Assembly: GCF_000012905.2 (NCBI RefSeq) | Contig: NC_007493.2 | Coordinates: 1,170,001-1,202,000, forward strand | Origin: Cereibacter sphaeroides 2.4.1 | Lineage (GTDB): Bacteria; Pseudomonadota; Alphaproteobacteria; Rhodobacterales; Rhodobacteraceae | Reading direction: 5' to 3' | Length of the DNA: 32,000 nt | Part shown: positions 29,561 through 32,000 of the stretch, one piece after another | How positions within the stretch are numbered: the stretch's first letter is position 1 | How the letters are laid out: each line of letters begins with the position of its first letter | Notes under the pieces: generated by a model | Seen by the model: only the letters and a program-made list of their open reading frames with translations | What the model was told of the DNA's origin: nothing | The model's database searches: none | Made by a program: the position numbers and the translations under genes

Positions 29561-31437
29561 GCGCGCTTGCAGCCTTCGTCACGCTGGGCGGAGATCCGGG
29601 CGAGGCCCAGAGCCGCGTCCTGTCGATGCTGTCCGCCATGCCCACGCGCGGCACGGAGCTCCGGGTGCGCGCGCTGACCGCGGGCGTGGCGCTGGGGCAC
29701 GGGCGGCCCGCGGGGCGCGGCGGCCTCGGGCCCTGGCGGTTGCGGCCGGGCGGCCCGGTCCTGACCGGCACCGTGCGGCTCGACAACGGTCCCGAGCTGC
29801 GCCGCGCGCTGGGGCTGGCCGAGGCCTCCGACGCCGAGACGGTGCTCGCGGTCTATGACCGCTGGGGGCTCGATCTGCCGCTCCATCTCGACGGCGACTT
29901 CGCGCTGGCCCTGTGGGATCCTGTGGCCGCGCGCCTCATCGGGCTGCGCGACCGGTTCGGCGTCCGCCCGTTCCTCTACCGCGCGACGCCGCAGGCGGTG
30001 GCGGTTGCCTCCGGCATCGAGGCGCTGGTGGCGGCCTTTCCCGCCTGCGAGCCCGCCCTCGACGAGGTCTGGATCGCGGAATATCTATCTGGCCAGCCCA
30101 CCTGTGCCCGCCGGACCGTCTATCGCGGCATCTCCCGGCTCGAGCCCGCCCACATGCTGCTGGTCGAGAAGGGCCGGACCGAGGTCCGTCGCTACTGGCA
30201 GCTGGAGGTGGCGCCGCGGCGCCGCGCCGATCCGCCCGAAGCGCTGCTCGAACTGCTCGACCGCTCCGTGACGGCGCGGATGCAGGGCGGCCCGGTGGGC
30301 TCGATGCTGAGCGGAGGGCTCGATTCCGGCACGGTCTCGATGCTGGCTTCACGCCGGTCGGAGGGGCCGCTGCCGGTCATCTCGATGAAGTTCGACGATC
30401 ATCCGGAGATCGACGAGAGCGAGTGGATCGCGAAGATCCATGCTGCCGGCCGGTTCCGTCCGGTCTGGATCGACGGTCGTGACGCCCATGGTGGCGATGT
30501 GGCCGAGCTGCTGGCCGAGCAGGGGGGGCCCTTCTTCGCGCCCAATCTGGCCACCTCGCGCTGGCTCTACCGGCGCGCGGCGGAGGCCGGCGTCGAGATT
30601 CTGCTCGACGGCCATGGCGGCGACGAGGTGATCTCCTTCGGCGTGGCCCGGCTGACCGAACTGGCCTCCGAGGCCCAATGGCGGACCCTCTGGCAGTCGA
30701 CGGCCGCCGTGTCGGACCTGTTCGGCGGATCGCGGCGGGAGTTCTTCCTGAATTCGATGGCGCAGGGCGCGCAGTCCCGCTGGCTGCGCGCCATGGCGCG
30801 GCGGCTGAATGTGGGCGCAAAGCGCGATCCCCGGGCGTGGCGGCAGGCGCTCCATCCGGCGCTGGTGGCGCGGACGGGCCTCGTCCAGCGCGTGCAGGAG
30901 GCGGCCGGCGCGCGCAAGCGGGGGGCCACCGACGACATCCGCCAGCATGTGGCGACCCTGACCGCCCCGCGCTATCCGACCACGCTCGAAGTGCTCGACC
31001 GCGCAGCCACGCTCTGCGGGATCGAGCCGCGCTATCCGTTCCTCGAGCGGCGGCTGATCGAACATTGCGTGGCCCAGCCCGCCGCGGCGAAGTTCCACGA
31101 TGGCATGACACGCGCCCTCCTGCGCGATGCGGTGCGGGGGCTTCTGCCCGACGAGGTGCGGCTGCGCACCAGCAAGACCAATTTCACCCCCAACGTCCGC
31201 GCGCGCATGCTGACGAGCTGGGGCGACAATCTCAACCGGATCGCCGGCTGCAATCCCGGCCGGATCGGCGACTATGTCGATCTGGCCGTCATCCGCGAGG
31301 GCATCCAGCGGCTGCGGGCGGGCGAGCCCGACCAGCCGGCCCTCCTCCAGACCATGCGGGCGGTCGTGCTCGACGAATGGCTGCGCGGCGGATCGTCCGC
31401 GCTGGCCCCCCGCCTCGACAGAAGGACCCCCGCATGA
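29557..31437 (+). CDS. Lasso peptide cyclase C (asparagine synthetase-like, ATP-dependent macrolactam synthetase)
   Basis: 626 aa with an AsnB-like fold and the PP-loop SMLSGGLDSGTVS. The N-terminal nucleophile Cys2 is absent (the protein starts MSAL), as in lasso cyclases. It lies in the A-B1-B2-C context. Confidence 0.88.
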   Translation: MSALAAFVTLGGDPGEAQSRVLSMLSAMPTRGTELRVRALTAGVALGHGRPAGRGGLGPWRLRPGGPVLTGTVRLDNGPELRRALGLAEASDAETVLAVYDRWGLDLPLHLDGDFALALWDPVAARLIGLRDRFGVRPFLYRATPQAVAVASGIEALVAAFPACEPALDEVWIAEYLSGQPTCARRTVYRGISRLEPAHMLLVEKGRTEVRRYWQLEVAPRRRADPPEALLELLDRSVTARMQGGPVGSMLSGGLDSGTVSMLASRRSEGPLPVISMKFDDHPEIDESEWIAKIHAAGRFRPVWIDGRDAHGGDVAELLAEQGGPFFAPNLATSRWLYRRAAEAGVEILLDGHGGDEVISFGVARLTELASEAQWRTLWQSTAAVSDLFGGSRREFFLNSMAQGAQSRWLRAMARRLNVGAKRDPRAWRQALHPALVARTGLVQRVQEAAGARKRGATDDIRQHVATLTAPRYPTTLEVLDRAATLCGIEPRYPFLERRLIEHCVAQPAAAKFHDGMTRALLRDAVRGLLPDEVRLRTSKTNFTPNVRARMLTSWGDNLNRIAGCNPGRIGDYVDLAVIREGIQRLRAGEPDQPALLQTMRAVVLDEWLRGGSSALAPRLDRRTPA

Positions 31438-32000
31438 GTGCCCTCCAGTCGCTCCGCCCCGCACTGCGCACCGCCTACGGCTTGGCCGTTCGGTCGGACA
31501 TCGACCTGCCCGAACTCGAGCCCCTGCCGGGCGACGGGGCTGCGGATCTGACCGTGCGCCGCGGCGCGCTTCCGGAGTTGCCGGGCGAGGGAGGCTTCCG
31601 CACGCGCTTCGCGCCCGAGCGGGCCGAGCTCTGGTGGCAGACGGTCGGCACCTTCCGTGTCGAGCCGGGCCTCGTGACGGCAAGCCCCCATGCCGGCGTC
31701 TCCGAGGATCTGGTGGCCTATCCGCTTCTGGGCTCGGTGCTGGCGCTGGCGCTGGAGCAGCTCGGCCTCTTCACGATCCATGCGAGCGCCGTCTCGGTCG
31801 GCGGCCATGGCGTGGTGATGATGGGCGACAAGGGCGCCGGCAAATCCACCACCGCCACGGCGATGATCCGGGCGGGCCATCCGCTGATTGCCGACGATAT
31901 CGTGGCGGTGGACGAGGGGTTCCGGCTGCGCCCCGGCTTCCCGCAGGTGAAGCTCTCGCCCGCGGCGGCGGCGGCCTTCGACGCGCCCGATGCGGTCCAC
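31434..32000 (+). CDS. HPr-kinase-like serine kinase (lasso peptide kinase candidate), 3'-truncated by the window edge
   Basis: This ORF is not in the supplied track because it is open at the window end. The ATG at 31434 overlaps the C stop as ATGA. My translation is [19 protein letters not shown]...[53 protein letters not shown]. HASAV followed by a GxxGxGKST P-loop and then ADD is the HprK C-terminal-domain pattern. Confidence 0.75.
   Translation, partial: [189 protein letters not shown]

Follow-up and report, generated by a model that had tools for sequence, protein, structure and literature searches.

The end of a 32,000-nucleotide stretch of the Cereibacter sphaeroides 2.4.1 genome (assembly GCF_000012905.2, contig NC_007493.2, positions 1,170,001 to 1,202,000; hereafter the window, in which all coordinates are counted) contains the first part of a gene whose product, judged from sequence, is a P-loop kinase resembling the C-terminal domain of HPr kinase (HprK) and encoded inside a lasso-peptide cluster. 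The gene, its domain and its catalytic residues are intact, its predicted fold agrees with the domain assignment, it is linked to the lasso operon, and the C-terminal Ser of the precursor peptide encoded in the same cluster is conserved. By analogy with characterized lasso-precursor kinases, the enzyme most likely phosphorylates this Ser, numbered Ser50 in the precursor and Ser24 in the core. The features of the kinase gene are as follows:

31434..32000, plus strand: putative HprK-like lasso-precursor kinase (K), first 189 codons, recognized by Pfam Hpr_kinase_C, by 99% identity to the homologue P0001 and by the near-identical contig L005.
31421..31426, plus strand: Shine–Dalgarno-like GAAGGA, 7 nucleotides (nt) 5′ of the kinase ATG and within the 3′ end of the cyclase gene, read from the sequence.
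31779..31898, plus strand: catalytic core with H116, the P-loop G131-x2-G134-x-G136-K137-S138 and the metal pair D154-D155, found with a regular expression and spaced as in the BsfK motif.

The kinase frame begins at the ATG at 31434..31436, which shares bases with the TGA stop of the 626-residue cyclase open reading frame (ORF) at 29557..31437 in an ATGA overlap—that is, in the context ...CCCGC ATG AGT..., with the last two bases of the ATG and the next A forming the cyclase stop—and stays open for 189 codons to base 32000, the window end, just as the original prediction had described it. The same prediction had remarked on the absence of the gene from the ORF list, which is accounted for because that list omits ORFs running off the end of the source. 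A second in-frame ATG is located at 31377..31379, 19 codons 5′ of the proposed start and inside the cyclase gene. A scan of one genome per species yielded 207 genomes with a relative, from which 80 loci were kept. Of 76 related loci, 74 have the 4-nt overlap between cyclase stop and kinase start, as ATGA in 68 and as GTGA in 6, and gene calls on related contigs begin the kinase at the codon equivalent to 31434. Because this overlap is conserved and the orthologue gene calls agree with it, the start at 31434 is favored over that at 31377, an assignment from sequence that is well supported but not proven. At one locus (L087), cyclase and kinase are 30 nt apart and do not overlap. Two antisense ORFs overlapping the cyclase and the kinase, at 30349..31683 (minus strand, 444 residues) and 31272..32000 (minus strand, 242 residues), were taken as artefacts of the 68.7% GC content; the plus-strand kinase frame has a third-position GC content (GC3) of 0.889 and hundreds of homologues.

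A database search returned 852 homologues of the kinase at E ≤ 1e-3. One of these, the full-length P0001, has 306 residues, is 99% identical to the window protein and comes from a contig of a metagenome-assembled genome (MAG); the homologue in Cereibacter azotoformans has 307 residues and 89% identity, and Cereibacter johrii JA192 encodes a kinase 98% identical to the window protein. Furthermore, the MAG contig L005 shows 97.6% DNA identity to window positions 29514..32000 and continues 2.7 kb further. On near-identical and orthologous contigs the kinase is full length (306–307 residues) and is followed by an ABC exporter gene. In near-identical sequence, 4-nt overlaps are present at both the cyclase–kinase and the kinase–exporter junctions, the latter in L005 and L006. 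From these sequences, the window ORF is read as the first 189 codons of an HPr-kinase-like enzyme of ~306 residues, ~117 codons of which lie beyond the window end. Two residues distinguish the window protein from P0001, H125 versus N125 (31806..31808) and F163 versus L163 (31920..31922), both outside the catalytic motif.

The kinase fragment scored 44.8 bits against Pfam Hpr_kinase_C (PF07475; gathering threshold (GA) 33.3, E = 1.3e-11), the full-length P0001 scored 43.3 bits, and the homologue P0002 was also above the threshold. All eight residues of the motif H-x14-G-x2-G-x-G-K-S-x15-D-D are present in the window protein with spacing identical to that in BsfK, and 75 of the 80 related loci retain the motif. 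In BsfK the corresponding conserved residues of the lasso kinases are H148, G163, G166, G168, K169, S170, D186, and D187, and mutagenesis has shown that the His, G163, the Lys, the Ser, and both Asp residues matter (PMC10368454). The 40-residue peptide that had been singled out as the P-loop core of the HprK C-terminal domain corresponds to kinase residues 116–155 (nt 31779..31898), and this description agrees with the PF07475 scores and the intact motif. The prediction would have failed with a full-length protein lacking HprK_C homology; P0001, to the contrary, passes PF07475, and its structural model matches both HPr kinase/phosphorylase (HprK/P) and phosphoenolpyruvate carboxykinase (PEPCK) folds.

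Membership in a named HprK family can be judged from curated cutoffs. The NCBIfam HprK-related kinase A and B systems (TIGR04352 and TIGR04355), which are distinct PqqD-associated cassettes, were named along with the original call, and both models give weak matches in the P-loop region; similarly, the PqqD-family protein B1 of the cluster weakly matches TIGR04353, the "HPr-rel-A system PqqD family peptide chaperone". However, the scores against TIGR04352 (30.3 bits for the fragment, 29.3 for P0001, and 31.4 for P0002) and TIGR04355 (28.1 bits for the fragment and 26.7 for both P0001 and P0002) are far from the cutoff of 200 set for each, B1 reaches 21.6 bits against TIGR04353 (cutoff 35) and scores higher with lasso PqqD families, and the cluster holds a bona fide lasso B2 and cyclase. 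Thus, a place in these systems is very improbable and effectively refuted by the curated cutoffs. Of the partners named for these families, the PqqD protein is borne out by the name of TIGR04353, while the link to a nucleotidyltransferase was not confirmed, the nucleotidyltransferase-like protein N of the window matching no NCBIfam family even at E ≤ 10.

A genuine HPr(Ser) kinase/phosphorylase of carbon/nitrogen phosphotransferase system (PTS) regulation might also be considered, as TIGR00679 is the best NCBIfam match by E-value and HprK/P enzymes are the best sequence matches in the PDB. The TIGR00679 score is, however, 44–45.5 bits against a cutoff of 240, and the match is confined to ~47 residues around the P-loop; no Hpr_kinase_N match was obtained, the N-terminal domain and the whole fold are nearer PEPCK than HprK/P, and the genomic context is an operon for a peptide that is made by the ribosome and modified after translation (RiPP). 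True HprK/P membership was rejected on the TIGR00679 cutoff, and a catalytically dead scaffold is opposed by the intact set of catalytic residues, which leaves either possibility exceedingly improbable.

A confident AlphaFold model of full-length P0001 (mean predicted local distance difference test score (pLDDT) 88.9, predicted template modeling score (pTM) 0.88) was compared with the PDB using Foldseek. ATP-dependent PEPCKs matched it over its whole length (query-normalized TM-score (TMq) 0.54–0.59, E ~1e-9), and HprK/P catalytic domains matched the C-terminal half (target-normalized TM-score (TMt) ~0.5, E ~1e-6 to 1e-5), both folds with a match probability of 1.00 and with identities of 14–22% in the structural alignments (14–20% for PEPCK). 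HprK/P and PEPCK share one P-loop fold; therefore, the two sets of matches point to the same superfamily. The predicted fold of P0001 as a whole, including its β-rich N-terminal 110 residues, is closer to PEPCK than to HprK/P, the latter reaching a TMq of ~0.30. This PEPCK-like fold, as modeled, may explain the NCBI name "phosphoenolpyruvate carboxykinase (ATP)" on the Mesorhizobium homologues P0048 and P0104. Among Pfam and NCBIfam models at E ≤ 0.01, no PEPCK family was matched by the kinase, the similarity being at the level of the fold alone. A sequence search of the PDB with the kinase found no solved lasso-peptide kinase and matched HprK/P alone (E ~1e-6).

The kinase gene is embedded in a class II-type lasso cluster, in which N and a family-2 glycosyltransferase (GT2) gene are divergent from the series A, B1, B2, C, K, D. 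The members of this series encoded in the window in addition to the kinase are as follows:

28577..28729, plus strand: precursor A, 50 residues, GTG start, with the 26-residue leader VANNIQTLAYEAPVLRVHGTLEAMTH and the 24-residue core GATDGWALDASFPVDTPKGDLTFS, identified from related loci and an orthologous gene call.
28810..29076, plus strand: B1, PqqD-family RiPP recognition element, 88 residues, Pfam PqqD 59.2 bits versus GA 23.4.
29087..29560, plus strand: leader peptidase B2, transglutaminase-like, 157 residues, Transglut_core3 69.5 bits and NCBIfam lasso_biosyn_B2 50.1 bits versus cutoff 33.
29557..31437, plus strand: lasso cyclase C, Asn-synthase-like, 626 residues, Pfam Asn_synthase E = 2.6e-45.

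The core of the precursor is encoded at 28655..28726, with the C-terminal Ser codon at 28724..28726; the C-terminus reads ...LTFS, such that the TFS ending noted at the outset is indeed that of the window sequence. GAGGAA lies 7 nt 5′ of the GTG start, and an orthologous 50-residue precursor gene is annotated in CP090021.1. The recognition positions named for such leaders (PMC10368454) are occupied here by Tyr(−17), Pro(−14), Leu(−12), and Thr(−2); G1 and D9 of the core are the predicted ring residues. The top NCBIfam matches of B1 are lasso PqqD chaperone families, at scores below their cutoffs, and the cyclase scores 366.9 bits against the NCBIfam lasso lactam cyclase NF033535, under the cutoff of 525. 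The end of B2 and the start of the cyclase overlap by 4 nt. The exporter gene (D) is directly 3′ of the kinase in the orthologous loci L005, L001–L004, L086, and L087, placing it just outside the window.

In all 75 species-level loci with full flanks, the kinase lies between B1 and C on one side and the ABC exporter on the other. This context bears on the possibility that the substrate of the kinase is not a peptide but, for instance, a sugar or a polysaccharide intermediate of the surrounding exopolysaccharide locus, and that the adjacency of the kinase to lasso genes is incidental. Such a role would suit a fold resembling, over its whole length, that of ATP-PEPCK, a small-molecule kinase, and the position of the cluster among GT2, GH16, Wzy_C, and Wzz genes in many genomes. 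It is nevertheless quite improbable: the 4-nt overlaps lock the kinase between cyclase and exporter in the 74 of 76 loci mentioned above, the kinase stays with A, B1, B2, C, and D where polysaccharide neighbors are undetected (Salinarimonas ramus, Pseudoroseicyclus, and Paracoccus sp. R86501), Pfam gives no PEPCK match, and the characterized homologues are peptide kinases.

With a peptide substrate as the favored reading, the precursors of the related loci indicate which residue the kinase may modify. A tblastn search of the related loci with the 50-residue precursor gave no match, the query being too short. Precursors were instead recovered by translating the interval 5′ of B1 (from N to B1) with the C-terminus unconstrained, and in all 78 B1-containing loci the 24-residue core was found to end in Phe-Ser (77 TFS and one AFS). 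A set of 37 distinct cores was obtained with a regular expression requiring TFS, so positions 22–24 were judged solely from the unconstrained search. Across these 37 cores, position 3 is occupied by A, S, G, T, or Q, and thus by a hydroxyl residue in only 13. The single AFS core, GASDGWALDASLPAGTPCGDLAFS, comes from Rhodobacter sp. NSM (L008, ~5225..5299) and is unique in having Ala22 rather than Thr, Leu12 rather than Phe, and Cys18; its C-terminal Ser is kept.

The catalytic segments of known lasso kinases printed in Supplementary Figure 10 of PMC10368454 provide a second line of evidence. SyanK was the nearest to the window kinase (50% identity over 80 columns, score 196), with BsfK, PcyK, LvtK, PadeK, ThcoK, and PsmK scoring between 103 and 148. 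HprK homologues in lasso clusters are known to add a phosphate, in some cases several, to the C-terminal Ser of the linear precursor (PMC9266682, PMC8498205, PMC6993621), and SyanK of Sphingobium yanoikuyae ATCC 51230 (Zhu et al. 2016) is one of those that (poly)phosphorylate this residue (PMC9266682, PMC8498205). The C-terminal Ser is regarded as the likeliest target because Phe-Ser is present in every one of the 78 loci, Ser24 is kept where Thr22 is lost, and SyanK is the nearest relative. The earlier statement that kinases of paeninodin-type clusters phosphorylate the C-terminal Ser of the precursor, in some cases more than once, is likewise in line with the literature on PadeK, ThcoK, SyanK, and PsmK.

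The enzyme could instead be a lasso-precursor kinase directed at another hydroxyl, namely core Thr3, Thr16, or Thr22. BsfK phosphorylates core Ser3 and accepts Thr there (PMC10368454), LvtK has been proposed to act on Thr3, and the window core begins with G-A-T; Thr16 and Thr22 are themselves almost invariant. However, a hydroxyl is available at position 3 in just the 13 of 37 distinct cores, and this variability argues against phosphorylation of residue 3 of the BsfK type. Furthermore, in the L008 core Thr22 is replaced by Ala while Ser24 is retained, the last residue of BsfA is Asp and that of every precursor here is Ser, and the kinase is nearer SyanK (196) than BsfK (111), LvtK (124), or PcyK (103). 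A different target hydroxyl is, on this evidence, unlikely.

Several observations weigh against the assignment to the C-terminal Ser or against parts of the evidence for it. Thr16, present in 36 of 37 distinct cores, and Thr22, present in 77 of 78 loci, come close to Ser24 in conservation; therefore, conservation alone does not single out Ser24. With BsfK there is a precedent for a lasso kinase directed at a ring residue, Ser3 (PMC10368454), and the window core has Thr3. The comparison with SyanK is based on ~95 residues read by optical character recognition (OCR) from a supplementary figure, and the kinases of the Cereibacter/Mesorhizobium clade, the window protein included, are known from genes alone. 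The similarity to PF07475 is limited to profile positions 8–54 of 171, and the window contains 62% of the kinase gene, the remainder being taken from contigs of 97.6–99% identity.

In its domain, motif, cluster setting, and Ser-ending precursor, the window protein would by sequence belong with the lasso-precursor kinases in every computable respect, and its likeness to individual members of this group varies. Like the window kinase, SyanK is a proteobacterial HprK homologue encoded in a lasso cluster with a precursor ending in Ser, and it is the nearest characterized relative over the printed segment; the family-specific strings common to the two include PLLG, ALAL, LHASA, GHGV, GDK, AGKSTTA, and RAGH. 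SyanK differs in its origin (Sphingomonadales, versus Rhodobacterales here) and in its precursor sequence, and was compared as a partial, OCR-read sequence. PadeK and ThcoK, from paeninodin-type clusters of Bacillota, have the same His-Lys-Asp-Asp set and P-loop, but only 34–37% identity to the window kinase over the catalytic segment; with these enzymes the precursor receives phosphate at its C-terminal Ser ahead of leader removal and cyclization, and ThcoK can add several phosphates (PMC9266682, PMC8498205). Firmicute clusters are also organized unlike proteobacterial ones (PMC8498205), and the pseudomycoidin K gene sits between A and B1 (PMC6993621), whereas the order here is A-B1-B2-C-K-D. 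In Bacillus pseudomycoides, PsmK adds one or more phosphates to the C-terminal Ser, and the attachment of one or two hexoses to the phospho-Ser requires PsmN (PMC6993621). The pseudomycoidin cluster thus combines an HprK-like kinase with an "uncharacterised NTP transferase", as the window combines K with an NTP_transf_5 protein (N and PsmN being likened by description only); unlike in pseudomycoidin, N of the window is divergent and paired with a recognizable GT2. BsfK of Bradymonas sediminis acts on the leader-bearing precursor, is stimulated by B1, and is encoded in a cluster carrying an N gene (PMC10368454). This HprK-like lasso kinase shares the eight-residue motif of the window protein, but it targets the ring residue Ser3 of a precursor with a terminal Asp and Ile(−2) in the leader, in contrast with the Thr(−2), the invariant C-terminal Ser, and the variable position 3 found here; moreover, BsfK aligns with the window kinase over just 46 columns. 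Finally, HprK/P and ATP-PEPCK have the same P-loop phosphotransferase fold, and the window kinase belongs to neither family.

What the kinase phosphorylates, at which site, at what stage, and how many times would, by analogy, be as for PadeK, ThcoK, SyanK, and PsmK. As a phosphotransferase of the HprK/PEPCK superfamily, the kinase would bind a nucleoside triphosphate and Mg2+ through K137, S138, and the glycine-rich loop, with D154-D155 coordinating the metal and H116 supporting the second Asp. It would bind the linear, leader-bearing precursor, probably aided by B1 as for BsfK, and phosphorylate the side chain of Ser50 on its hydroxyl, once or more, with ATP (or GTP) as the donor. After phosphorylation, B1 and B2 would take off the leader, the cyclase would close the Gly1–Asp9 isopeptide ring, and the ABC exporter encoded downstream would export the product. 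Further decoration of the phospho-Ser by N and GT2, as by PsmN in pseudomycoidin, is plausible but less certain.

One additional element of the cluster lies between the precursor and B1:

28751..28781, plus strand: perfect, GC-rich hairpin of 14 bp between the precursor stop and B1, without a T-tract, found by folding.

The 88-nt region containing this hairpin has a minimum free energy of −31.8 kcal/mol (z = −5.3), and none of 200 shuffled sequences folded as well. Stems of at least 12 were found after the precursor in 47 of 77 loci, versus 68 of 385 random windows of the same loci, although their sequences are unrelated. No canonical intrinsic terminator was found after the precursor in a scan for one, and the hairpin probably stabilizes or attenuates the precursor transcript.

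The lasso genes are flanked in the window by genes of a polysaccharide locus, with N and its GT2 partner nearest to the precursor:

27095..28273, minus strand: nucleotidyltransferase-like N, divergent from the precursor, longest ORF 392 residues (orthologue called at 378 residues), Pfam NTP_transf_5 (PF14907) 93.3 bits versus GA 31.2.
26142..27098, minus strand: GT2, 318 residues, directly downstream of N and with its start overlapping the end of N at 27095..27098, Pfam Glycos_transf_2 85.8 bits.
24540..26126, plus strand: second GT2 gene, part of the polysaccharide locus.
23708..24490, minus strand: GH16 homologue, part of the polysaccharide locus.
22402..23691, minus strand: Wzy_C gene, part of the polysaccharide locus around the lasso cluster.

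N was detected in 74 of the 75 full-flank loci, with a GT2 homologue directly downstream in 69 of these 74, and GH16 and Wzy_C were present in 71 and 66 of the 75, respectively. Most of these 75 loci are from Mesorhizobium, such that the counts are not independent. N and the polysaccharide genes are kept in Cereibacter, Rhodobacter sp. NSM, Limimaricola, Pseudaestuariivita, and a Rhodobacterales MAG; in Salinarimonas ramus and Pseudoroseicyclus, N is present and none of the queried polysaccharide genes was detected. The association of lasso and polysaccharide genes is frequent but not universal outside Mesorhizobium. In Paracoccus spp. (L045, L087, and L069), the order A-B1-B2-C-K-D is kept and the NTP_transf_5 gene was not detected, indicating that the kinase does not depend on N. 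A literature search linking "lasso peptide" with PF14907 found nothing.

Some observations concern the surroundings of the cluster. In Mesorhizobium opportunistum, a small minus-strand gene after the ABC exporter (L086, 12841..13113) encodes a SyrA-family protein (PF11089), a family that regulates exopolysaccharide production in rhizobia; in the same place after the exporter in Cereibacter (L001, 12859..13116), an 85-residue protein without a Pfam match is encoded. The ORF at 20936..22258 was considered as a Poly_export gene and set aside, having neither a Pfam match nor tblastn matches; it is probably in the wrong frame. At 56..7700 and 12860..17859, the window has an ordinary chromosomal context, comprising three Proton_antipo_M genes (NADH dehydrogenase L/M/N-like), RNase J, an SDR-containing ORF of 914 residues, an ABC ATPase with a TOBE domain, and a LysM/M23 peptidase.

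The identification of the kinase completes the annotation of a lasso cluster cut by the window end, with a predicted product that is a 24-residue Gly1–Asp9 lasso peptide bearing a phosphorylated C-terminal Ser. At least 207 species-level alphaproteobacterial genomes share this design, among them those of many Mesorhizobium symbionts and of the model phototroph genus Cereibacter. In the literature searched, including for lasso peptide, Mesorhizobium, and kinase together, no characterized product from the Cereibacter/Mesorhizobium clade was found. HprK-like kinases in proteobacterial lasso clusters have been on record since 2016 (PMC9266682, PMC8498205), and NCBI already labels homologues of the window kinase "serine kinase". 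The kinase thus adds to a known enzyme type and does not constitute a new kind of system, its interest lying mainly in the uncharacterized clade and in the N–GT2 module. Lasso kinases reportedly accept varied substrate sequences, and their use in the combinatorial biosynthesis of lasso-peptide analogues has been proposed (PMC8498205). The practical value here is that of a genome-mining lead, with the N–GT2 pair giving an entry to phospho-Ser glycosylation chemistry of the PsmN type.

The conserved pairing of N with GT2, together with the polysaccharide genes, hints at a phosphoglycosylated product, which is to be taken as a lead and not as a result. By analogy with pseudomycoidin, it is conceivable, though doubtful, that the kinase performs the first step of a two-stage decoration conserved among Alphaproteobacteria, in which N and GT2 would extend the phospho-Ser into a phosphoglycosylated or nucleotidylated tail, and that the product is functionally tied to the exopolysaccharide locus surrounding the cluster in Cereibacter, Mesorhizobium, and several other genera. 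If so, the peptide could, for example, serve as a signal that carries a glycan or regulate polysaccharide production.

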